Source: Podarcis gaigeae (lineage: Eukaryota). From it: a DNA stretch of 64,000 nt. Below are positions 1,653 through 64,000 of the stretch, piece after piece; the first letter of the stretch is position 1, and the number at the start of each line of letters is the position of its first letter. The stretch lies in the NCBI GenBank assembly GCA_964106915.2, contig OZ066914.1. One strand, given 5' to 3'. The notes beneath the pieces are model-generated. The model searched no databases, was not told where the DNA came from, and worked only from the letters and a program-made list of their open reading frames with translations. The position numbers and the translations under genes were made by a program.

Positions 1653-1864
1653 GGTTTTGGTGTCCTCGGGTGTCTTCCCGTGTAAAAGTTGGGGTGTCTA
1701 GGCGACGTTTCGACGAGGTCTCACTCGTCATCTTCAGGCTGGTGCTTTCGGCTTCGAGTGAGACCTCGTCGAAACGTCGCCTAGACACCCCAACTTTTAC
1801 ACGGGAAGACACCCGAGGACACCAAAACCTGCATTCCTGTACCCGTGAAAATCTACGAAAGCAA
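1648..1864. mobile_element. Penelope-like element terminal-repeat (pLTR) fold-back insertion, family A, inside (TA)n
   Basis: Perfect 80-bp inverted arms at 1648-1727 and 1755-1834. Hammerhead core on the minus strand. Flanked by (TA)n on both sides. Confidence 0.75.
1702..1739 (-). ncRNA. Minimal hammerhead ribozyme motif (family A)
   Basis: Minus strand reads CUGAAGA-U-GACGAG-ugagac-CUCGUC-GAAACGUC, with palindromic ACGU stem III. Stem I is only about 2 bp. Confidence 0.6.
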
Positions 1865-2475: not shown

Positions 2476-2490
2476 AAAAGTCTTTCTCTT

Positions 2491-3512
2491 TTTTTAATAA
2501 TAATTTTTATTAATTTTCCAAGTTTTAAAATAAAACAGCAACATCATCAATAAGATCAAACAGATACATACAATATCATTTCTTAACCTCATTTTCTTAA
2601 CCCTCCTTTCTCAGACTTCCCCGTACCTCACCCTTTTTGCATCCTTGTTTTACAATTTTTCAGCAACCCTTTTTGCCAATTAAATTAAAACTTATCTTTC
2701 TCAATTCCACCTTAAATCATCAAATAGTTTCAGCTGTAATTCTACATCTTCCTTCCCCTTGACAATTTAACATTCCTCAATTTTATAACAGTCCTTAAGA
2801 TATACTTTAAATTTCTTCCAATCTTCCTCCACCGTCTCCTTCTCTTGGTCACGGATTCTGCCAGTCATTTCTGCCAGTCCCATAAAGTCGATCACTTTCG
2901 TCTGCCATTCTTCCAGTGTGGGTAGTTCTTGTGTCTTCCAATACTTTGCTAGAAGGATCCTTGCTGCTGTAGTGGCGTACATAAAAAAGGTCTTATCCCT
3001 CCTTGACACCAATTGATCGACCATGCCCAAGAGAAAAGCCTCTGGTTTCTTGTGAAAGGTGCACTTAAGTACCTTCTTAATTTCATTATAAATCATTTCC
3101 CAAAAGGCTTTAATCTTTGGGCAGGTCCACCAAAGGTGGAAGAAGGTACCTTCAGTCTCATGACATTTCCAGCATTTATTATTGGGCAAATGGTAAATTT
3201 TCGCCAGCTTGACTGGGGTCATGTACCACCTATAAATCATTTTCATAATATTTTCTCTTAGGGCATTACATGCCGTGAATTTAATACCGGTGGTCCATAA
3301 CTGTTCCCAGTCAGCAAACATAATGTCATGACCAATGTCCTGTGCCCATTTAATCATGGCTGATTTAACCGTCTCATCTATTGTATTCCACCTCAGCAAC
3401 AAATTATACATTCTTGATAGATTCTTAGTATTAGGTTCTAACAATTCTGTTTCTAGTTTCGATTTCTCCCTCTGGAAGCCTATTTTCCTGTCTTGTTTAA
3501 AAGTCTCCATTA
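2491..3512 (-). mobile_element. 5'-truncated L1-type LINE (ORF2 C-terminus, 3'UTR, polyA)
   Basis: Open ORF 2767-3510 with CWKC...FFHLWWTC zinc knuckle typical of L1 ORF2 ends. Minus-strand AATAAA at 2506-2511 and A-tail. Possible TSD tttctctt (2483-2490 and 3513-3520). Confidence 0.88.
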
Positions 3513-10117: not shown

Positions 10118-10246
10118 CAGGCACCCCCAAACTCCAGATATTTTGGGACTACAATTCCCATCATCCCTGACCACTGGTTCTGTTAGCTAGGGATGATGGG
10201 AGTTGTATTCCCAAAATATCTGGAGGGCCGAGTTTGGGGATGCCTG
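10118..10246. mobile_element. hAT-type palindromic MITE (gggactacaactcccatc family)
   Basis: TIRs caggcacccccaaact/agtttggggatgcctg. 8-bp TSD agctagat/agctagac. Confidence 0.8.
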
Positions 10247-11358
10247 AGCTAGACTGATGGAGTTGATGATCTCTGGGTGGGATTAAACTGAGAAGTCGTG
10301 TCAGTGGAAGCCCTGCTGAAGAACTTCTGCTTATGAAATGGAGCTTCCCTTGTTGTTTCCCAATGCCCCTGAACTGGCTGAATAGCATGGGGAGGGTTGT
10401 GTCTGATCGTTCTGTCTGGAAAGCCAAAATATCTGTCCTGATGGAACTATCACCTTAGCGTAATGTTGAATTCCTCCCTCTGTCGTGTTACGTTAGAAGA
10501 AACGTACACATCTCTCGCTAGTCATATCTCTTGCTTTTATAGTCACAAAAATACTAGAAATGTTTGTGACTACTAACTGATGGCGAAGTTGATACAAAAT
10601 ATAGTGGCTTGTTTCATTAGGGCAACAAAGCAGGGGATTTGTATTGAAGCATTTGTGTAGACTATTCAGTGTGTAATTGAGTTAAGTTGCTTTACATCAG
10701 GGATAGCTAATGCAGTGCCTCACGGATGTTGCTGGACTCCAGCTCTCATAGTCTTTGACTATTTGCCATGCTGGCTGGGGCTGATGGCTGATCTGGAGGG
10801 TACCACATTGGATGCTTCTGTTTTAAAGCATATTGGCACATGCCCTCAGAAAACCCATGCTTTTCTGTCTGTCCACCCACTCTGTTACCAACACAGTTCC
10901 AGTGTATGGATTTATTTTTAGGTACATTGTACAAGGAAGCTAATAATGCATACTGAACTTGTTTTTCTTTTCAAATCAACAGGGATGTTGATTTGCTTAT
11001 TACGATCCACTTTGCAAATTCTTCCAGACTAGTATCTCTGAGTCATATGTGTTAATATGCATCTGTAATGCTAAAATGCTTCCTTAATGTATCTGCAGAT
11101 AATCCTTTACTGAAAAAAATTGGTATCGTTATGACTCAGTGTGCCCGTGTGGGTTTTAAATAAGTAGCAACCTAACTGTCTTCAGTTCCCAACAATAGCA
11201 TTTCCTCGGCTTGAAGGTTTTGGTGCTAAGCATAAGTTCACTTCCAGACTGCAGCTGCTTCGTAGAGCCCATGTGAGCAGTCATTAGGCTTTTGAAAAGG
11301 ATTATTAAGCAAATGAACAGAGGGTGCTTTTTAACTAATGTATAACTTTGCATTCTAG

Positions 11359-25698: not shown

Positions 25699-26448
25699 GT
25701 AAGGATTCTTTGCTTTGCTTTCAGATAGTTTATTATAATTATTCTGATTGCCTGTTATAATAAAATCAACATGGAGCATCCCCATATGGTGGCTAATCTA
25801 CTTTGGGCAGTAACTCTTGTAAATGCTATGTTTTTCTCTGGATACTTTCTTATGTGCTTTATTAATATGTAGCTTAAATGATAACAGACCTCTCTGGGGA
25901 GATATAGATATATATATAATAGCTAGGATCATCATCTACTCTAACTGACTCTTCGATGTTAAGGCGAGAACTAGAGCTGAAGGCATGATTTTAAAATAAT
26001 ATCACTTCTTTGCTTTTCATGGCTGCCAGAATGTAGAACTTAAAAGAGATATGTGCTGCTTTAGAATTGTTTCTCTATAGGCCGGTAGGAAACCATGTTT
26101 TCTGAAAGTCTACAAAGGCATTTGAGGTAATATCCCATCCCAACATTTTTTTACTTTACATAGTGAATGTAAAATATGAACTGGGTTGGAAGTCTTGATC
26201 TGGACGCAGTCCGGCAGTTTTCTAACTCTTCTCTGATTCCCACCCCCAATAACCAGCATCAATTGGAGGAAGCAGAGCATGCTAAATACTTGCATAAATA
26301 TTTAAGTGGGGCATTTGTTGCTGCTTCATACACATCCCATTAGAATTAATGGACATCAAACAGCAGTGGCATGGGCTGGTTGCTTCCTGTGCTGTAAGCA
26401 GTCTGTATCAATCTTTTCATTTTAGCTACTGTATTTAAAATGATTTTC

Positions 26449-35212: not shown

Positions 35213-36440
35213 TATTGGAGCCAGAGTGATGGACTGCTATATTGATTAGCTAGGTTTCCTACAGAAAATATTACTATTATAATATATTTTTGCAAGTTCT
35301 TCTTGTTCGAGGGATATTGGTTAACAAAAAGTGACTTTCTACATTTTGTTAGGTGGCCTTCCATTTTATATAACCACTTACCTGTCTTGCTTTGTCCGCA
35401 ATTGTTTGTTTGCTTAGTTCAAATGATAAACGGAAACTTAAGTCAAATAAGATGGATGTGGTTCATTAGCCCAGGGACATGGAATTGCTCTATCCTCTAA
35501 TGGAGCAGCTTCACAGGTTGGGATTCGACTAGTGAGTCCTGTCAGCGAAAGCCCTGTACAGGGACTTCTGCTTGCACAATGCGACATTCTTCCTCTCCTC
35601 CCCTGGTGCCTCCTGAGAGTGGCTCTGGGGGGAGGGGACAGAAGAAACCCTGGAGCAGTGCACCGTTGTGGGCAAGGGGGGGGAATAACCTTACTTTTAA
35701 GCCAAAATACTTGCCCTGAAGGAACAATCGCCTAGGCGTGACATTGAATTCCTCCCACAGTTTGTGAGTTCTCCTAGATCCACCTTTATCATTGGAGACA
35801 TTCTTTGGATTTTCCTCCTCAGATGCCAGACTTCTCTTCAGTCACCTCAGGCTTCTCTGCAGTGTCAGAAAGATGAATATTTGGAGATAACATAGTTTCC
35901 GCAATAGAGATGTAAGAGATTTGATTTGTTTTTATTTTATCATGGCAATTTACAAGAGTAATGCAACCAAAATTATAGGTCCATTTCCTGAGGATCTTGC
36001 GAACTCAGTTTCAGCATCTCAAGGGAAGGAGGTGCAAGTGTAACATACAGAGAATGTGCAGAAGTGTTATTAATTTACTTACCGCTTTATGCCCAGATAG
36101 TTTCTCTACTCAAACTTCAGATTTATTTCAGTAAGGTTGAGGACTTAAAGTGGGTGGGGGGAAGACTGCAGAAAATATAGACTTAAAAGCATCTTAAGAA
36201 ACAGTTTTGCTAAGCTAAATGGAGCCCCTCTGAAGAACCTGCTTATTGAACATTTATCCTGATTTGCTTGCACAAAGCTTACACAGAGGTTAGATTATAT
36301 CCACTCTTTATTACACATTCATTCTGCATTTTTTGAGGGGCAGTTACACTACAGTGAGCATTCATCTTGATTTGTTTGTGTGGTGTTTACATTTCCTCCC
36401 GATAGCCATTAATCCACACCTTTTCAATGCATTTACCTGT

Positions 36441-36753
36441 TACAGATAGGTAGCCGTGTTGGTCTGCCATAGTCAAAACAAAATTTTTTTTCCTTCCAGT
36501 AGCACCTTAAAGACCAACTAAGTTAGTTCTTGGTATGAGCTTTTCGTGTGCATGCTTCAGATACACTGAAACAGAAGTTGATCTGCCAATCACCCATTCC
36601 CACCACCCTTCTGAGTAATACCCCTCCCCACCTTCTCACTATATAGAAGGGTCTGGTAACTTCTGTTTCAGTGTATCTGAAGAAGTGTGCATGCACACGA
36701 AAGCTCATACCAAGAACTAACTTAGTTGGTCTTTAAGGTGCTACTGGAAGGAA
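36441..36753. mobile_element. Penelope-like element pLTR fold-back insertion, family B
   Basis: 15-bp TSD aatgcatttacctgt (36426-36440 and 36754-36768). Inverted arms at about 36491-36579 and 36658-36753. Hammerhead core present. Confidence 0.85.
36673..36710 (+). ncRNA. Minimal type I hammerhead ribozyme motif (family B)
   Basis: GUAU-CUGAAGA-A-GUGUG-caug-CACAC-GAAAGCUC-AUAC: stem I GUAU/AUAC, 5-bp stem II, palindromic AGCU stem III. Confidence 0.75.
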
Positions 36754-37701
36754 AATGCATTTACCTGTCACTGAAACAGACAGGTTTTTTTTAATTAGTG
36801 AAGTAGTTGTGCTGGGGAAACAGAGCACTTTAATCCTCCTTAAATGTGCAGACCTAAAGTTCTGGTATGCGGCTGAATCAGTCCCATGATGCCTTGGAGG
36901 TGCTGCAGATAATTACTGCATCAGTTCTAACCACAGACTTGAGGCTACCTAACAGCTGTAGAAATTGTTTACTTTCTGTCAGACCAAAGATTCTTTAATT
37001 ATAAAGATAAACTTGTCTTATATTTATTGAAAATGCCCTTGTCTTATGCTCTGACAGTGATTGCTCCTTGACTTGACAGTAGATTACCAGAACTCGTTAC
37101 AATAAAGGAGTCGTTGATTTGCTTCCTTCTTTCTGATATCAATACTACTAAGGGAAGCTATCTCATATTACAAAATGCATTTGTAATAGTACTACCAAGT
37201 TTCCCTTTAAAAATAGCATCCTTATAATTTATCACCTAAGCCTTTTGCTAAAACACTTAGAACTGCATCTCACATCACACTTAAATGACATAGATATGGT
37301 AACTTGAAGCTCTCCCTAACAGCCTTACAAAACTTGAAGAGTCTAATTTTCTACAAGACTAGGAAGGGGAGAGACACATCAGCTGTGACTTATTGCCCCC
37401 CTCCTTTTCTTTTGTGTTTATTGTTTACTTTGCTGCTTCTGTGGACAAGGAAGGGGGAAGGGTTTTTTGTTTTTGTTTTTTGCTGTGGATGCTTGTGGGT
37501 TAGATTAGAAGGGGTTGGTTGCTATATTCTCTTGTTAGCTTTATTGTTCAAAAATATGTGTGCATAAAACTAACCCATACAGTATATGCATACAAGTCTT
37601 TAGCTGCATTGCAGGGGGTGAACTAGATGACCCTTGGGATCCCTTCCAACTCTACAGCGCTTTGATTCTGTGTGTGAAAGTGTGCAAAATTGTATTGAGA
37701 A

Positions 37702-39925: not shown

Positions 39926-40062
39926 CAGCAGTTCTCAACCTGTGGGTCCCCAGATGTTGTTGGGCTACAACTCCCATCATCCCTGACCACTGGTCATGCT
40001 GGCTAGGAATGATGGGAGTTGTAGTCCAACAACACCTGGGGACTCACAGGTTGAAAACACTG
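39926..40062. mobile_element. hAT-type palindromic MITE
   Basis: TIRs cagcagttctcaacctgtg/cacaggttgaaaacactg. Flanks ctctagag/ctagag. Shares the ctacaactcccatcatcc core. Confidence 0.75.
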
Positions 40063-41973
40063 CTAGAGACTGTGCTCTGTGTTGTACCCAGAGGACTCTG
40101 TGGTGTTTCCTATCAAAATGTTTTTCACCCCTCTCAAAAACGTCTCACTGAGAGGCCTCCTCCCCTCCCATTCCAACTAGCCCCCTTGAGCAAGAGAGAA
40201 CTCAACATAACCTCATGTAACTTCACTGGATTCCAGTTTATCAAGGGATTGCCAGGCTTTGGGGGCTAATGGTAATTTTGAGAAAGTGCCATGGGCACCA
40301 GTCACAAAATGGCTGCTGGGAAGGGTCATGGTGGAGTGATACAAAAAAAACTGCTTTATGTGTGTGACATACTGGTTGCCACATCTAAAAGAGCAGGAAA
40401 AGAGACAGGACCACAACTTCAGCCTTATCATCAATGGGAAAAGGCAGCTACATCAGCCACTACTGCACATGCTCAGAGAGTGCAGTTCTTTCCCCTCTTC
40501 TCTGTTCAGAACTGGGGGGAGAGTGGGTGTCCAATCCTGGTATCTAATGAAAGGTGGGCATGTTAGAGGGGAGATGTTTGATGTATGAGACACCGAACCA
40601 ATGCAGACTAAACTGAGCAGAAAGAGCAAGCAATCACTTGTGCATAATAGATTTTTGAGCGGATATCCCGTATACTGAGACCTTTAGCAGGTTCCATAGG
40701 AGGTACTGACAGGCTCACTGGTACCCAGAGTACCACATTAGTAAGCCCTGCTGTGCATGCAGATCAAGCAAGCAATATAGAGGCAAGACATCTGAATATT
40801 GTTTATAAAGTTCTGCATGTTCATATTAATATAGCTGTCAAGATTGACCTGAGAACCAGAAATTTGTTGCTCCAGCAAGTTTCTGGGCCAAACACGAAGC
40901 CTCTTATAGCCGTTCATGTCCAGGAGGGCCAGCTTATAGTTTGAGAATACTAAATATTCAGAACCATTTCTGAGGGGGGTTGGAAGAGATGACTTCGGGG
41001 TCCATTACAACTCTACCATTCTATGAAGGTGCAATTCTGATATTTACCATATAGAACATAGAACTGAAAGCTCCCAGTTCTAGCCTCAGCAGCTTCTTGC
41101 CAGTGGAGAATTACTCAGTAGGCAGCCTAAGCTCATGTTTAGGGCACCAGCAAAGCAGGGACGTGCACACACACACAAAATTTGTTAAATAATTATTTGA
41201 TATTTCAAAATAGTCACCATGCGAAAAATCAGAACTTGGTTAGACTTCCTTACACCCCACGGCACACTCTTCCCCCATTTTTCTGTTCTCTTTTTGTTAC
41301 TGATGTTGAATCACCCCTTCAGCTCTATCAAACTTGAGGCCTCTGAGAGTTAAGCACACAGTTAAACAACAAATCTAAAACGTAGCCCCTCCACAAGGAC
41401 AAGACTCAGGCCATCTTCTACAGTTGGAAACTGTAGCAGTTCCAGCTGACTATACATTAGAAATTCCTGAATATTGCAGAGTCTTTACTTTGGTCCATCT
41501 CTTATAATCAACATGTCTGCTCTTGTCACTTGGGAAACAGTTCAGCGTGTACTACTGTACCCCTCATATTATTAGAGCATTCGCTCTTTTATAGATTTCA
41601 CCTATATTAACTAAATTTCCAGGCAGACCTGATAATTTTTACACCTCCCTCCTTTTGTCAGACTCCATTAATGAAATTACTATCCAAGTGGCAAAATGGC
41701 AAAATACTTTGCTTCAGCGTGCATTACGAGGAACCCCACCAGCCCCACTAGCGTTCAGCAACCCTTTCTAGGTGACTGTGAATGTGCTGCAACCCCCCCC
41801 CCCCAATATCATTAGCTTTTCACTGTGCTGTCAATTCCTAACCGTCCTCCACTGTTCTGAAAATTGCAACTATATTTGTTTGACTGTGACTTAGTGGCTG
41901 AGCTGTGATGGTAATAAGAAAGAAAGAATTGCATATGGGCAAGTGGGAACCACAATCTTTTCAGTGCTTAGGG

Positions 41974-42109
41974 CAGGCATAGGCAAACTCGGCCCTTCAG
42001 ATGTTTTGGGACTACAACTCCCAGCATCCCTAACTAACAGGACCAGTGGTCAGGGATGATGGGAGTTGTAGTCCCCAAACATCTGGAGGGTCGCGTTTGC
42101 CTATGCCTG
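41974..42109. mobile_element. hAT-type palindromic MITE
   Basis: Perfect TIRs caggcataggcaaac/gtttgcctatgcctg. Perfect 8-bp TSD gcttaggg. Confidence 0.85.
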
Positions 42110-43897
42110 GCTTAGGGCCTCTGAAGGTCTCAATCTAGCCGCCTTCTTACACTAGTGTATGGCCAAATTCAGACCTATGTGATAGGTCATATGTACAGGC
42201 TTCTTCATTCACTTCAATGGCAAGAGTGGCTTGTGTGGAGCTTCTGCTATTGAAATTCATTATTCTTATTCATACTTATGCACAAAAGTTCTAAAAGAGC
42301 TCTTGCACAGAGGCATACCTTGGATCCCTTGCGCCTTTGGCAAGGAGCTGTACCAGTGTCCTGTTCCACACACACACACGGCCTTCCCAATAACTTTACT
42401 GCAATAGTCACATTGGAAATTACTACATTTTATATGACCCAAGTCCCCGATGCATCTGGAGTGAGGGTGAGGCAAGGAGGAAGGGCACAAAATTGCACCT
42501 TTGTGTCGTGGCACAAGAAGGATGGGAAGCTTCTCCTGCGGCATTGGCATACACATACGCCATGCACACCAGTGTCTCCAGTGGTCTACCTTCGTACTGC
42601 CTTGCCATTTCTCCTACCGCTCGGCTCCCAGCTTTTGTCTGAACTCATGACCTTACATAGATAACTGGAGACAGATTTCTGGAGTGATTTTTGTCCCCCT
42701 GCTTGGGTCTGCGGTTTCACCAGCCCCTAGGTAGGCCTCTGCTCCTGCATGACCAAATGATATCACCATGTTTTTGTTCTGTTCTTGCAGATATAAGGCT
42801 GTTCTTTCAAATATAAGGCTGCATATGCACCATACATTTGTTTTTCCAAAGAAATCTGAGAAGTAGTTTATACTTTTCAGAGCTACGATTCCAAACACCA
42901 TTAACAAATTACAATTCCCAGGATTCTTTGGGGGTGTATGGGCTTCAAATGTCTTTTACTTGTACGGTATGTACACAGCTTTATTAGCAAGCTGCAAGAC
43001 CCAAGAAGCAAAGTATAAGCTGGAGCACACTTTGGCTATCTTGCTAAGCCTTTAATATATTTTTTTCAGTTTTTAATGTATTTCAGAAAATGCAGGATCT
43101 CAAAATCAGAATCTCTTTGTTATTCACTTTGGTTGATACAGACTCAAAGTTAAGATTGGTTCATCAGTTGTCATAGTAACAGACCAATTTTAGAATCTGT
43201 TCTTCTGGCATTTAGTTAACAGAGGAAAGTGATAACATTTGGTTACTTTTAAAATATAAACTTTAGTGCAGCTCTGCTTAAAAGAGTCCCTCATTCAGGT
43301 GCAGATAAGCACACAAATAGGAAACAGTTGAAATGTACATTCAAGAAACACTTCACTGAAAGGCCAAGGGATGTAGCCAATAAAGCTGTTTCATTGGCAC
43401 AAGGACTTTGGCCTGTGCAACGAGACTTCCTCTTCCCATGCCCCCTCCAGATCTGCTCTAGGTTCCCCCCCTCCCCAACCAACCAGAGAAGATTAGGGAA
43501 GGGGAGGGTTAAGAAGTTCCATTCCATAGGCTGAGGTCCTTGGGCTACTGGGCAATTTAGTTGAACACCACCCTTAACATTTTGGGAGAGATGACTTTCT
43601 ATTCATAGTTAGAATTGCTTGTTAGGATTTTTAATAGAAGATTAATTTAAAATCACCGTCTTTTATAGACCACGTCTTCACGAGTCACTGTGTTTTCCTG
43701 CTCACTTTCCTGCTAATAAAGACAGAGCAATGTTTGCTACAGCCAAATTCTGAATTTGCCTCTTCATAATATTAAAAATTGTGTTCCTTTTTGTAGATGT
43801 GCTGCAGTAACTTAAGTTTAATCCTGGCAAATGTATATAGAGTTGGCAGAGTTCACATAAGTTTCTGGACTTTTTTGCATGATGGAGGAATGATGCA

Positions 43898-52060: not shown

Positions 52061-53125
52061 TCCAGGACTCCCTGGTCTCCCCATATTTCTTTCCACATTC
52101 ATATTTAAACTGATGTATATTAGATATTTGTCAATTGACACCGAAGACCTGCAAGAGGGGAAAATTCCCACAATTTGCACATAGTGAAAGGGGACAGCCT
52201 TTCCTTATTTTATTCAGCATTCCATACAGCAGGCCCTGTTCGCGCAATGAATGCATACTTTACATAAAAGACCTATTTGTTTAAAAACTTAATTCTGATG
52301 CAAAGTTGTGGTTGGAGGGATATAGCCTAAGATATAGGGCAGGGGTAGCCATCATAGTACCCTCCATCAACCATGGCTAGCATGGTCAACAATCAGGGAT
52401 GATGGGAGCTGTAGTCCAGCATCATCTGCAGAGCACTATTTTGTCTATTCTCAGTATAGAGAAAGGGCTAGTTACATCTTCACATTACTGCACATTGTGA
52501 TAAGAGCCAATCCAGATCATGAACTCACATTTTCATTGGCTAAAGTGAATGCTGTTATAAATAAAACAGATTGAAATTCCCCACAGTCAGCTGCCTGCTC
52601 CCTGCTGTAAATCACTGCTCACACATGTGGTCTGCTCATGTTAGTAATGGTAATGAACACAGATGAGTTTGAGGTTCTTCTTCCATAACCTGGAAAAAAA
52701 CTTGCAATGTACGATTTTCCATTATAGGCACTTAGAGCAGTGATCTTGCATGCATTCATTGCTATGACATTTCACTGCCAATGTGAGTAGACTGTTAACA
52801 TGATTTGCAGAAGTGAGCTGGGAGTTGAATGTAAGAGAACTGTCAGATTTCCTTGTTATTTTGAGATTTGCCTGATGCTGAGGTCTGGCATAGGTAGTTG
52901 AGGATAGTGTCCCATTTTTATCACCATTGTAAACTATGGATTAGACACTACTGCCTGAGGTTTCATCTAGGGATAGTTGCCAATTTTACCAAAAAGGAAA
53001 CTTAAATGCCTACTCATACATAATCTATAGGCTATAAAATAATTGGCCAAAAGTCAACAAGCCTTAATCAGAGGGTTAATCTGAACAAATAGATTTGATT
53101 ATAATAAGTATTTTTTGTTTGTCAG

Positions 53126-53343: not shown

Positions 53344-53930
53344 GTGAGTATTTGGTATATATTTTTGTCATTTCTCACATTATTTCCACCTCTACCATAA
53401 AAAGGCAAGTCGTGAGGAGTAGTGTCAATTGGTAGAATGGCAGCATGAAGTGATAAGTTTTTTTTTTTTTTGCGTGTGAAGAATGTTCCCATGTCTGCCA
53501 TCTTTCCTCTGTTTAGTGATTTGCCATTTCCTTGAGATGATTGGTACTTTATTTATGAATGTATTAAGCTGTAATATGATGATAAAAGAGTTGAAAAGCA
53601 ATATGGCTGTTGGGATAACATTCTCTTTTTTCCTGCCTATTGATCAAACCTCAGAATTACTATTATCTCTTGACAACAGGAGAGGGATGGTGGTCTGCCC
53701 TGGAGTGTGCTGTGCTACATACAGTACTGTGGATTTTGGAAAAATAGATGACAGTGCAACAACTTTCAAATGCTGATGTTACAAACGAATGACTTCTCCA
53801 TTTTTGCCCATGTTAGCAAAAAGCAAAAGTCAAATACTTTTTAGGGATGTAATTGTTGTTATATGAATGGAGTCATACCTTTCTCTTAAAATGAATGGTC
53901 GAGTATATGCTGAACCCTATTTTTATAGAG

Positions 53931-54012
53931 CAGGGTTTCCAAAATTTGAGTCTCCAGCTGTTTTGGGACTACAACTCCCATCATCCCTAGCTAGCAGGAA
54001 CAGGAAACCCTG
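53931..54012. mobile_element. Internally deleted hAT-type MITE
   Basis: TIRs cagggtttcc/ggaaaccctg, with half of the gggactacaactcccatc core. Confidence 0.65.
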
Positions 54013-57636: not shown

Positions 57637-57708
57637 GTGTTTTGTTCATGCACTAGAGCAGGGAAAAGTAAAGCCCCCCCAAAGGCATTAGGAAATATGA
57701 TTCTACAG

Positions 57709-57844
57709 CAGGCACCCCGAAACTATGCCCTCCAGATGTTTTGGGACTACAGTTCCCATCATCTCTGACCACTGGTTCTGTTAGCTAGGGGTGATGGGAG
57801 TTGTAGTCCCAAAACATCTGGAGGGCCAAGTCTGGGGATGCCTG
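57709..57844. mobile_element. hAT-type palindromic MITE
   Basis: Same family as 10118-10246. TSD ttctacag/ttctagag. Confidence 0.8.
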
Positions 57845-58236
57845 TTCTAGAGCCTTCAAGACCCACCAGCATTATAATTTGCACTCATGGTCTATGTAGA
57901 TGCCCCACTCTGGCCTTCAGACCTGCTGTTCAGCTACGAAGTAGGTCAGAAACTCTGCCTCCCACTTTTATCTTAGCTTCTGTCTTGCTTATTTTCTGCC
58001 CCCAGTGAGTCATCTGATAGATGTTCATTGTTAGTCTGGTTTATTGTCAAATTTGTGTCACAGAGAAAAATGGGCACCTTTCCTGCATCCATCATCCGTT
58101 TCCACAGCATAGAGCTCTGTCATAGCTGTGGGACAATTGCTTGATTTCCTTAGAAATAACTGGAGAGCTTCAGATTAAATGATGCTACTTATTGATGTTC
58201 TTTATGGACTATGTGTACTGACGGTATAGTGATAAC

Positions 58237-58385: not shown

Positions 58386-58593
58386 GAGATAACAAGATAT
58401 GGGAGATTTAGGACTGGTTCTTTTGTGCTAGATCTGGGGCTGATGGGAGTTGTAGTCCAAAACAGTTGGGGGACACTAGGTTGGTTAAGGCTAGTATGAA
58501 CTGTGTTATGAACTGTGTTATTAGAAGTGTATTGTTTCTTGAATGCTATTTCTTAAAACAAACGTAGCAGTTTTTAAGAAGGTTGACTCTGTA

Positions 58594-58827
58594 CAGTGGT
58601 ACCTCGGGTTACATACACTTCAGGTTCCAGATGCTTCAGGTTACAGACTCCGCTAACCCAGAAATATTACCTCGGGTTAAGAACTTTGCTTCAGGATGAG
58701 AACAGAAATCGTGCAGCGGCGGCACAGCAGCAGCAGGAGGCCCCATTAGCTAAAGTGGTGCTTCAGGTTAAGAACAGTTTCAGGTTAAGAATAGACCGCC
58801 AGAACGAATTAAGTAATTAACCCACTG
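58594..58827. mobile_element. Tigger-like MITE
   Basis: ta|cagtggtacctcgggtta ... taacccactg|ta, with repeated caggtta motifs. Right TIR partly deleted. Confidence 0.72.
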
Positions 58828-59697
58828 TAGAGGATTTTGAAATGCTTACAGTGTGCTAGCAAGGAATCAGTTTGAGTGTGACATGAACTATCCACGAGTC
58901 TCTGGCAGGCAGATTGCTTGAGGAAAAGCCACCACGCAGTTACCCTTTTTGTCCTTTTGTTTGCTAATTTTGCACATCAGGTTTTTTTCATTCACATGCC
59001 GTGATCATGTGTTAGTCCCTGTCTTTGGGTGATCAGACTTCAGTCCAACAATGCAGTTGCTAAGGGTTTGGAATACTGTGCTGAAAAAGGTTGGCACCTA
59101 GCTGAATGGTTCGCTAACGTATGTGAGACAGTATGAATATGCATTGGATGATTTTCAAGCACATCGGGCAAGTCCATTATTATTGCAGGTTATTATTGAT
59201 ATGGAAATGAATAAAGAAATAACTGGTGTGTAGTTACATCAGTTTGAAATTGCAGAGTTATACACAAATCTTCACAAAGAAGAAGCATTTCAGTATTTGT
59301 TTGGAGTACATTGTCTAATAAATTCTAGTTGTTTGTTTCCAAGTGCTTCAATCTTTGGTCTTCATTGAAGCAATCAATATATAATTTGACTTGATGACTG
59401 CCAATGTGTAACTGAATATGCATGGGTGTGTATCTGTGTAGCCACTTAGCTTGGAGATGAGTGGGAATTGATGATTTAGAATATTTTTTTCAGAACTCAG
59501 AGCATAAAGACTGAACCGATATCCTATTATGGAAGATGTACCTCTTTACTCTGGCTTTTTACACCTGATATCTATATTTTTAGGACATGCCTTATTTCTG
59601 TAATTTTAAGTTTTAAAGTGTTCTTAGTCTCATGTTTCAATTATTGCAACCCGCCTTGGGACCTTGGGGTGAAGGGCAGGTAATAAATTGTTGTAGG

Positions 59698-59698
59698 C

Positions 59699-59730
<32 letters not shown>
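59698..59730. repeat. (CAA)11 microsatellite
   Basis: Direct reading. Lies 35 nt upstream of a KIAA1549 acceptor. Confidence 0.95.
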
Positions 59731-59731
<1 letters not shown>

Positions 59732-59765
59732 ACTGGCCTCATTTAAATACTTTATTCTTCTGCAG

Positions 59766-59895
59766 GCAACAAATGAAGAACTCTGTTTACCGAAGCAGGC
59801 AGTCTTTGAACAGTCCAAGTCCAGGAGAAACTGAGATGGATCTACTTGTTACACGAGAGAGACAAAGGCGTGGTATCCGCAACAGTGGATATGAT
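59766..59895 (+). CDS. KIAA1549: KIAA1549 exon (130 nt) RQQMKNSVYRSRQSLNSPSPGETEMDLLVTRERQRRGIRNSGYD
   Basis: ttctgcag| acceptor, GAT|gtacgt donor, phase 2-0. Confidence 0.94.
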
Positions 59896-60000
59896 GTACG
59901 TGCATGCAAAATTTATTCACTACAAGTTGCATTGGAAGCGTAGCAAACATTAGAACGGTCCTAGCAAAACAATCTACCTAGTGTGAAAGTGCTTAATAGC

Positions 60001-60140
60001 CAGTGCTTTTTTTAAAAAAAAAAAAGTTTAGGGGTACTCTCATTTTCCTACTCATATTAAAATACTGCCCCTCAATGAGGCCAAACTTATATTCACAAAA
60101 TGTTTAGGGGTATGCTCCCCCCCCCCCAGAAAAAGCACTG
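60001..60140. mobile_element. hAT-type MITE (cagtgctttt family)
   Basis: TIRs cagtgctttt/aaaagcactg. Perfect 8-bp TSD ttaatagc. Confidence 0.82.
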
Positions 60141-62011
60141 TTAATAGCTACTTCCATTTTAGCAATGGCTAGAACTGATTTTATGCAATTTTGGTCTTCA
60201 GGTTTCAGGGGGTTTTTTAATCATATATTCACTTCAGTAGAAGGCATGGGAAAGGCAGTTCCTGAAGTCAAGCTTGAATAACAGCAGTTCGTTCATTTTA
60301 AACATTCACTCAGGGACATGCCCTTTCCCAAAAGCTCAAGGTGCTTACAATCTAAGTAGATTGTTGATCTGACAATACAAGGCTGCTCCTTACAATCTTG
60401 TCGAGCCTTCCACACATTTTGTTAGTATAAAGGTAAATAACAAAAAGGAAACCCAAATTCATACACAATATTTTATTGATTCTGCTGATATGATACAATT
60501 CTGCAGTCTTACCATATCAACCAAGCTTAGAACAGGCAACTGGATCCTAAAAGCCACATCATTCTTTCGTTATTTAAACCACTTTCTAGCACCTATGGTG
60601 ACAAAAACAGTCTTGGGAAAATATGTCCACCAACAGGGCCCCATCAGAAGAGCTCAGCAGCTGAAGCAAAGCATAAGGAATCTGAGGGTCCTTAAGGTTC
60701 TTTGCACCCAAGTTGTTTAGGGCTTTGTGAATTAACACCAGGCCGCATCGCAGTCAAGCCCACACTACAGTGTATTCTGTTGGCTGCAGTACAATGCTTC
60801 TTTCAAACCTAATTTCAGTGGTGGGGGAGGGATCCAGGGGACCGTGCAGATCCTGCCACTGGGTGCGTAGGTGTACCTATAGGTGCATGGTTGGTGATCC
60901 CTGGTCTTGGCCTTTTCAACGGTGGCCTACAGTGCAGCAGTTGCAAGAAAAGAAAGGTGCAAATTCTATGTTAGGGACTGAATAAAAGCAGCCCCTGCTG
61001 AATGAATACGCTATCTGCCAGATCACAAATATAGAAATCAAGGATTGTAATCCTCATGATGTATTAAATACCCTATCTATCCACTGAAATATAGTGTGCT
61101 CCTTTGCCAAGGTGAGGGAAACTATGAAACATCAAAAAAGATTCACAAGAGTACGTTTGTGATGGGATTGTCCATGTTTTGACACTGCCTGTCAGAACAA
61201 ATAAATCGTAATTTGCTGTGTAACTGGGATTATGGCCTGCTATGCTCTAGTGTGCTTCACTGCAACAGAAATTTAAAGGGACAGCCTATTTTAAATCTGT
61301 TTTTAAATTTAACTGCTTCAGGTGGAAAAGGGGCTTTTAGAAAAATTACTGATAAAATGCTTGATAGAGGCAGCTTTTCTCTGACTCACTCTTTCCTGGT
61401 AGCTGTTTCCCTTTTGTAAAAGACTGTTTTGGTATGTTGTTAGCTTCCTTTGGCTTTCCTTTTGGCAACAGCAGCATGATACAAAAGTGAAGTGAAACAA
61501 TTTTGCATTGGGAGGGGAGGTGTGTGCTTTATTTATTTATGGCTTGCATTTATATACTGCCTTTCTCCTAAGGCAGTTTACAATTTAAAATATTAATGCA
61601 AGCAAATAGTACAAAATGTTTTTAGGCCTACATGAGGAGCAGATGGCAGATGCTATTTGCAGAGCATCTTTTAATATTTAGTAGTATAAATGGATCCTTG
61701 TGCCTAGCTGAAAGACTGCTTGCATGTTTAGCCTATTTACATGTATAAAGTAATTTTCAAGTCCAGTGCTCTCCCACCAACAGCCTCTGTGCAAGCAATT
61801 CCCAGCTCCCTAAGTAGGTAACAGAAGTGGCAAACAGGTATTTTGAGTTCAATCCTCCCCACCCACAAATGAGAGTTTGCCATATGTTTGTAACTTGCCT
61901 AACATAATTTATTAAATATATACATTATCCTCTAATATTGAGCACCTCATAGTAGACTGAATGGAGTGCTGAACTGAGTTGTCAAATTAAATCACACCGT
62001 GAGTGAAAATG

Positions 62012-62051
62012 ATATATATATATATATATATATATATATGCTTTCGTAGAT

Positions 62052-62095
<44 letters not shown>
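62012..62095. repeat. (TA)n microsatellite interrupted by 18-bp PLE remnant
   Basis: Direct reading. Confidence 0.93.
62039..62056 (-). mobile_element. 18-bp terminal remnant of PLE family A inside (TA)n
   Basis: tgctttcgtagattttca is the exact reverse complement of 1846-1863. Embedded in (TA)n at 62012-62095. Confidence 0.7.
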
Positions 62096-62097
<2 letters not shown>

Positions 62098-62478
62098 CAG
62101 AACTTGCTTATAGGACTATGAAACTTTGCAGTCTGTGCTCGTGTTACACTAGCACAACTGGGGAGATGGAATGGTCCACTCACAGTGCAAATGCTGACAC
62201 AGGAAGCTGCAGAGGAGGTGTGAGAGGACAGAAATAACTTATGTACCAGTGATGGGAAGGGGTCATTCTGACTGAAATGGATCTCTAGAAGTAGAGCTGG
62301 AGAGGGAGGGAGAAGTCAAGCAAGCACTGGGAATGTTGGAGTCATTTGCCCCTCTGACTTCATTTATGACATGATTCTACAACCAATTCTCTAGCCATTC
62401 ATCAGCTGAATAACACGTGGTAAAAACAAAAAAAATTCCTTCCAGTAGCACCTTAAAGACCAACTAAGTCAGTTCTTG

Positions 62479-62516
62479 GTATGAGCTTTCGTGTGCATGC
62501 ACACTTCTTCAGATAC
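62479..62516 (-). ncRNA. Minimal type I hammerhead ribozyme motif (family B, antisense copy)
   Basis: Exact reverse complement of 62529-62566. Confidence 0.72.
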
Positions 62517-62528
62517 ACTTCTTCAGAT

Positions 62529-62566
62529 GTATCTGAAGAAGTGTGCATGCACACGAAAGCTCATAC
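62529..62566 (+). ncRNA. Minimal type I hammerhead ribozyme motif (family B, sense copy)
   Basis: Identical to the motif at 36673-36710. Confidence 0.75.
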
Positions 62567-62876
62567 CAAGAACTGACTTAGTTGGTCTTTAAGGTGCTAC
62601 TGGAAGGAATTTTTTTTGTTTTGACTATGGCAGACCAACACGGCTACCTATCTGTAACTCGAACACGTGGTAAAGACAATCATTTCATGGTTTCTGAAAT
62701 AGCTGTCCATTATGGATAGGTGGTGATAGGCCAAATGAGGTTGGTAAAGAAAATGTAACACTTTATGAAAGTCAAATATAATCACTTCTTATGACTTAGA
62801 CACAGACAGGATTTTTACTGAATTAACCCCCCACCCTTTTGCACAGTTGCCCAACTTTCTCTCTTATATCCAACAG

Positions 62877-63227
62877 ACTGAGCCTGAAATGATAGAAGAA
62901 ACAAATGTTGACCGTGTCAATGAGCCACGAAATTATAACAGAGCTCATCAAGCAAAAGGCCATTCAGAGACATCGACTCTGAGTTCCCAGCCATCCATTG
63001 ATGAAGTCAGACAACAGATGCACATGCTATTGGAAGAAGCCTTTAGTTTGGCCTCAGCAGGTCATGGAGGACAGAGCAGGCAGCAAGATGCTTACAGTTC
63101 TACACAGCAGTTGCCATACTCTGAAGTTGTGACCAGTGCTCCTGGTACCATGTCTCGACCCAGAGGAGGAATACAGTGGGTGCCTACCTATAGACCAGAA
63201 GTGTATCAGTACAGTTTGCCAAGGCCT
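62877..63227 (+). CDS. KIAA1549: KIAA1549 exon (351 nt) TEPEMIEETNVDRV...YQYSLPRP
   Basis: ccaacag| acceptor, CCT|gtaagt donor, phase 0-0. Confidence 0.95.
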
Positions 63228-64000
63228 GTAAGTGACCACTTATATGTGTTTGAACTGTTTTTGAAATGCCAGAATTTAGACTTTAGGGAGTTTCTCTTCT
63301 GGCCATCACATACTTCATGGCTTGAAGATTCTGCTGGGCTGTGTGAATGATATTCAGTTTTCATCCTCATTATCATCCTCCTCATATTAAATTTCTATAC
63401 CTCCCTTCATCCGAGGATCACAGGGCAGTTTATAGTATGAAAACACAAAAATACATAGCAAACAAAACAATATCCCCCCAAACCAGTTTAAAAGGCCCTA
63501 GATTGTTTAGTCAAAGTCCTGGGAGAAGAGAAGTGTTCTAGATTAGTTTTGAGATGAATAACCCAAGTTGGCTTTATCAAATAGAAATTAACTTACTGTA
63601 CTTAAAATAAGCAGAGTAAGAGCTTGTCCGCATATCTGCTTGTCATGTGGGTCCGATCTTCCACTTGTCCTGTGCTTTCTAGGCACAGATCTGAGTGGTT
63701 TTTTCCATTTCTCCCACTGCTTTCCCCAGTAAAAACTGCTGTTTACCTCATAATTGGAACAAATGTCAATCTGCAGAAAAACTGATTGATGCTTGCTCTG
63801 ATTCAATGGCAAGCAGCGGGTCTTCCTGGTGGAAAGCAGAAGGACAAGCGGAAGTGTGGGAGAGCCCTAAAAGTCAAGTTGGCTTTAAAAAACCAGCATT
63901 TATTAGTGACCTGCTGTGGATAGCATCCTAAACAGTAATTTAGCATTATATGAATGAGCCGCAGCTTGCCTCAGGCGTAGATTCAAAGAGGTGTTTGGAA

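Follow-up and report, generated by a model that had tools for sequence, protein, structure and literature searches.

Transposition of Penelope-like elements (PLEs) is still poorly understood. Among the closest described systems are the Naiad and Neptune PLEs, which insert into (TA)n or other microsatellites such that their target duplications are hidden, and which have inverted pseudo-LTRs and a 30–40-bp tail (PMC8557442); the (TA)n bias is reported there for Naiads, and a microsatellite bias for Neptune by citation. Naiad and Neptune carry a CX2-5CxxC linker that is hypothesised to cause the bias, and Naiads have no hammerhead and an N-terminal endonuclease (PMC8557442). The Penelope elements of Adineta vaga and Drosophila virilis have an inverted pseudo-LTR, an optional 31-bp tail over the ORF start and simple AT-rich targets as reported (PMC3846280). 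PAc, a Poseidon element of Anolis carolinensis, starts reverse transcription in vitro 111–118 nt into its ORF, with two start sites bounding the tail, and AT-rich DNA is cleaved on both strands (PMC11167929). Other classes of element are linked to microsatellites as well: the CR1-L3 and Rex LINEs are retroelements associated with long microsatellites in squamates (PMC6050309), and the MuTAnT Mutator-like transposons of Medicago target TA microsatellites too, although these are plant DNA transposons with an unrelated mechanism (PMC4486113).

Here we describe a short PLE-derived insert, or scar, within a (TA)n tract in a 64-kb stretch of Podarcis gaigeae DNA (64,000 nt, referred to throughout as the window). 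We consider it probable, at roughly 60%, that this insert is the tip of a PLE tail, produced by reverse transcription that aborted at the distal start site in a pre-existing short (TA)n tract. As with Naiads and Neptune, the copies in the window lie in (TA)n and any target-site duplications would be masked by TA on both sides, both at the scar and at a longer hairpin copy; the scar differs in this respect from Penelope of A. vaga and D. virilis, for which 8–10-bp target duplications are visible and the copies are far longer (PMC3846280).

An element end interrupts a (TA)n tract

The scar is an 18-mer at 62039–62056 (+ strand) that is, as originally predicted, the exact reverse complement of 1846–1863, with 0 mismatches; these two positions, on the + and - strands respectively, are its occurrences in the window. 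A further match with three mismatches is located at 26103–26120 of the 64-kb window, and shuffled sequence gives a mean of 0.06 matches at no more than three mismatches. The first T and the last A of the scar are common to the TA tracts, leaving an informative core of 16 nt (62040–62055, - strand), which corresponds to ORF +97 to +112 and thus to the outer half of the tail of the PLE. The core is flanked by a left (TA)n tract of 28 nt (62012–62039) and a right tract of 40 nt (62056–62095). Judged from the orientation of the insert, the left tract is likely to be the primer side, with cDNA made on the + strand from there.

With the scar and the TA tracts removed, the rest of the window matches the element over no more than 11 nt, and the longest matches in 60 shuffles are 10–14 nt, which bears out the earlier statement that both traces of this family sit in TA tracts. 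That the scar is simply an interrupted microsatellite resembling the element by chance is scarcely credible: exact 18-mer matches do arise by chance in very large collections, and there are 42 in metagenomes (0 flanked by TA), but the match of 16–18 nt here exceeds the longest-match background for 64 kb, is positioned at the element terminus and lies in the same flanking repeat. We regard the scar as a genuine and recent remnant of an element of known type. In the same searches, two metagenome loci with the same flanks (L004 and L020) gave an 85% BLAST match over 34 nt that we judged to be chance, and a 24-mer had 0 matches among viral contigs.

The eight letters adjoining the TA tract on its left (62004–62011) are identical to element positions 1845–1852 and can pair with the inner end of the scar. 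This identity was weighed as a fold-back cue and is probably due to chance.

Anatomy and protein relatives of the donor

The donor-type copy at 1650–1864 is a hairpin located between (TA)n tracts of 44 nt (1606–1649) and 22 nt (1865–1886). It comprises an inverted pseudo-LTR arm lacking the tail (1650–1754, - strand, with its ATG at 1731), a direct pseudo-LTR arm (1755–1834, + strand) that starts at ORF +5 and is 100% complementary to 1648–1727 over 80 nt, and an unpaired, one-sided tail (1835–1864, + strand; 30 nt, or up to 34 nt with microhomology) that extends from ORF +85 to +114/116 and includes the 18-mer at 1846–1863. The ORF start is encoded in both arms, as is characteristic of the inverted pseudo-LTRs of PLEs, and, with one arm ending at ORF +82 (+84 with AT microhomology) and its counterpart at +114/116, the tail measures 30–34 nt, which is in keeping with the optional 30–40-bp tail of these elements. 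The predicted DNA fold of the copy is -110.8 kcal/mol, with the tail as its sole unpaired part. The original prediction took the 18-mer to be the element terminus, which is nearly right; the hairpin copy extends one letter beyond 1863, to 1864, and AT microhomology would take it to 1866. The 3′ junctions of the scar and the hairpin copy thus differ by 2 nt, as would fit independent insertion events.

Within the inverted arm, at 1704–1737 (- strand), a minimal hammerhead-like core can be read by eye against the features described in PMC4209133: CUGANGA, one extra base after position 9, a 6-bp helix II closed by G-C, GAAA, a palindromic ACGU centre and a putative cut after C. The core overlaps the ATG, and its helix I is weak. 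The ORF of PAc starts inside its hammerhead motif (PMC11167929). An Rfam search returned no hammerhead among 45 matches to E 10, and the matches that it did return are of AT-driven microRNA type only, with scores below gathering thresholds.

The window encodes just the first 38 codons of the element ORF, and no reverse transcriptase (RT) or endonuclease sequence of this family was found in the 64 kb. A phmmer search of 1.84 billion representatives with the 37-residue translation of the ORF start gave two matches at E ≤ 0.001. The top match (P0003, 35% identity) was discarded as spurious, being a protein of tandem repeats; P0004 is 68% identical to the ORF start, with E 3e-4 over the whole library. 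The Crotalus protein P0005 is 65% identical to P0004, and a search with P0005 led to 471 longer proteins, nearly all of the 120 listed carrying a precomputed RT domain. One relative from Podarcis muralis (P0023), 82% identical to P0005 over 36% of the query, has an RT domain (E 4e-16); towards its C terminus there is also a GIY-YIG match, which is weak at E 1e-3 and does not reach the curated cut-off of Pfam. Another, P0019 of Anolis carolinensis, is 40% identical to P0005 over 91%, and we take it as PAc-like, its start matching by eye the translated PAc template printed in PMC11167929; in a protein alignment the N-terminal motif aligns with that of PAc, offset by one codon. P0005 had no match among viral contigs, and its single weak match in prokaryote genomes (L043, 24 residues) was rejected.

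On hairpin and tail anatomy, together with this chain of homology to RT and GIY-YIG proteins, we class the donor as a PLE, and the prediction of a retroelement donor is supported. A LINE or SINE tail seeding the repeat was rejected in view of the PLE anatomy of the donor and the presence of TA on either side; for CR1-L3 and Rex the AATAG repeat belongs to the 3′ end of the element (PMC6050309), whereas the TA at the scar is two-sided and likely older. The donor is likely a member of the Poseidon clade, an assignment that draws on the 40% identity of P0005 and P0019, and on a missing linker. The CX2-5CxxC linker upstream of GIY-YIG was present in 0/65 relatives with a pattern-matched GIY-YIG core (P0023 included; 65 of 125 proteins have a recognisable core), a count that concerns relatives rather than the window's own element, and one that sets these proteins apart from those of Naiad and Neptune. 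With P0005 and P0019 only 40% identical, PAc represents a separate family from that of the window element.

The scar coincides with the region predicted to be copied first

Counted from the ATG, the scar covers ORF +96/97 to +112/113. Its 3′ end therefore falls within the start window of PAc (+111–118), such that the scar corresponds to the stretch that would be copied first and, by analogy with PAc, it is likely to be the first cDNA made. The likeness extends to the tail of PAc, which is bounded by two insertion ends, the distal one near ORF +111–118, and to its AT-rich targets (PMC11167929). One difference is that the reported cut preference of PAc is an ATT motif in AT-rich DNA, and pure (TA)n contains no ATT (PMC11167929). 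If the correspondence holds, a scar ending at the in vitro RT start site of the anole element would represent a natural minimal product of the same reaction; no tail-only insertion of PAc is described in the accessible text of PMC11167929.

The most likely series of events would begin with a GIY-YIG nick in a short pre-existing TA tract, after which the TA 3′ end would prime at ORF +112/113, aided by 1–2 nt of A/AT microhomology. Reverse transcription would then stop after about 17 nt, and the short cDNA could be joined to the other TA end through 1 nt of microhomology. Target duplication, followed by slippage, would have extended the tract to its present 28 + 40 nt. On this view the hairpin copy (1650–1864) would be the longer outcome of the same reaction, ending at both start sites (+82/84 and +114/116). 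A published alternative is that inverted PLE structures form by self-priming (PMC3846280).

The scar might instead be what is left of a full hairpin copy like that at 1650–1864, which inserted in the TA tract and, as a perfect palindrome between self-complementary TA repeats, subsequently lost its stem through slippage, through cleavage of a cruciform, or through resolution at the tail by the endonuclease of the element itself. We think this unlikely. In its favour, loss of the stem would leave the tail, since nothing else in the hairpin copy is unpaired, and the scar lies wholly inside the tail; moreover, tails have been ascribed to endonuclease-mediated resolution (PMC8557442). A clean loss of the stem would, however, leave about 28–30 nt from the stem base, where there are 2 nt of AT microhomology, and the scar begins 11–12 nt beyond that point, at a single nucleotide of microhomology. 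A hairpin allele did not appear in any of the four sequencing runs compared below, although loose ends inside the repeat dropped out of that comparison. The original prediction of extreme truncation after target-primed reverse transcription is supported insofar as the scar is the part that would be copied first, with loss of a hairpin copy as its less probable competitor.

A perfect hairpin set between TA runs is a difficult sequencing target. The 18-mer allele could accordingly be absent from the animal, a hairpin insertion having been collapsed by polymerase skipping or by a consensus error. Assembly problems at PLE insertions have been noted (PMC8557442), and none of the compared runs displays the scar, the repeat at 62001–62103 being skipped. 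We nevertheless regard such an artefact as very improbable, since the same assembly keeps the intact, TA-flanked hairpin at 1650–1864 as well as two more hairpins, and since the scar begins away from the base of the stem. The aborted reverse transcription of a tail tip remains our preferred reading.

Orthologous sites in other organisms are short

Part of the region 58500–64000 is present in 20 sequencing runs (7 studies, 8 organisms), four of which were compared over 61250–62415. In three of the four (X17, X20 and X6, from three other organisms) a single contig bridges both flanks. Over about 1,060 flank letters these differ from the window by 8, 25 and 22 substitutions and by 3, 1 and 2 indel rows for X17, X20 and X6 respectively. 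By record coordinates, the gap between the aligned pieces is 41, 34 and 35 letters, and after subtraction of the flanks 22, 12 and 16 letters are left at the site, compared with 84 in the window; these figures are lengths only, as the letters for 62001–62103 are not displayed. The contig of the fourth run (X1, a same-species run that shares its organism label with the best-matching run; 88% of the run read) ends 52 letters past 62000 and leaves the right flank uncovered.

All three bridged sites differ from the window by an even number of letters, as they do among themselves (4, 6 and 10 letters), although even parity in three cases is expected 1 time in 8 by chance. The contigs of the relatives are too short for the scar together with long TA and differ in steps of two, and a pre-existing short dinucleotide tract therefore fits; the comparison of lengths is likewise what empty, variable dinucleotide tracts without an insert would give. 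By length alone, only X20 (12 letters) is too short for the 16-nt core, and in principle X6 (16) and X17 (22) have enough letters to contain it. The left piece of X20 stops three letters early, such that a nearby indel could shift its count. An inspection of orthologous empty sites for prior TA had been proposed at the outset, and lengths of 12, 16 and 22 letters agree with that expectation as far as lengths can.

Within the compared region, 61528–61617 is a degenerate multi-copy repeat at which contigs from many other loci pile up in all four runs.

Long TA tracts adjoin the element family

The window contains ten TA runs of at least 8 nt. All four runs of at least 20 nt adjoin the element family of the scar, at two loci, and none of the six short runs (8–12 nt) does so. 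TA runs make up about 0.13–0.35% of the window, and both insertions of the family are in TA (2/2, in one 64-kb window). Provided that the tracts came first, two independent insertions would both fall in TA by chance with a probability of about 2e-6 to 1e-5, a figure that is inapplicable if the element makes TA. The idea of a TA-specific element is in line with these counts and, resting on two insertions, is not established. Family B, a second hairpin family in the window, has 0/2 copies in TA and clear target duplications of 15 and 13 nt, and the TA association is therefore no general trait of the hairpin repeats present.

At the filled site TA totals 68 nt, which exceeds the 44 nt expected from full duplication of the longest relative's 22-letter tract and implies some lengthening, unless the pre-insertion allele was already long. 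These dimensions lend some support to the suggestion that the element expands TA, given 12–22 letters in relatives. A more extreme possibility is that insertion was at an ordinary AT-rich site, and that the telomerase-related RT, or repair, added TA at both ends. It would explain why every run of at least 20 nt touches this family and why the filled site holds so much more TA than the relatives, which have at most 12–22 letters (lengths only). We find it improbable, as the three bridged sites differ by 4, 6 and 10 letters amid rare indels, in the manner of an existing dinucleotide repeat, and as the 16-nt insert is one-sided yet has TA on both sides; seeding of TA from nothing, which the original prediction had allowed, is disfavoured. 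Insertion of an aborted tail copy into an existing short tract, with some subsequent lengthening, is the reading that we retain.

A much broader proposal, which we offer tentatively and consider doubtful, is that this Poseidon family targets (TA)n without a zinc-finger linker and lengthens the tracts it strikes, that most long TA microsatellites in the genome are its insertion sites, many marked only by tail scars of 10–30 nt invisible to repeat annotation, and that such scars form a genome-wide in vivo map of PLE RT starts and aborts. Tail scars fall below the length that standard annotation picks up and may lie within TA microsatellite markers. If true, a Poseidon family that uses (TA)n while lacking the CX2-5CxxC linker would make it less likely that TA bias depends on this linker. 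A PLE bias for microsatellites (PMC8557442) and AT-rich cleavage by the anole Poseidon (PMC11167929) have already been published, which limits the novelty of microsatellite targeting to less than had been implied. Our literature search found neither tail-only scars nor a TA-targeting squamate Poseidon family, with Repbase and the 2005–2006 PLE reviews, which may describe either, outside its scope; a Poseidon family using (TA)n without a zinc-finger linker, and tail-only scars, may thus be new.

Other repeats in the window

The two copies of family B, which is also young, are located at 36426–36768 and 62412–62674 (hairpins at about 36441–36753 and 62425–62661), and are 99% alike over 82 nt; their 15- and 13-nt target duplications are in non-TA sequence. 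Family B is likely another PLE, with a hammerhead-like core recognisable by eye. At the turn of one family B hairpin there is a 14-nt tandem duplication (62501–62528), possibly a product of the inversion junction. Dispersed short hairpin (MITE-like) repeats are present in at least six copies, at 10132–10253, 39931–40069, 41969–42116, 52364–52431, 53913–54003 and 57697–57851. An abrupt block with a T-rich end at about 2480–3510 resembles, by eye, a fragment from the 3′ end of a minus-strand LINE.
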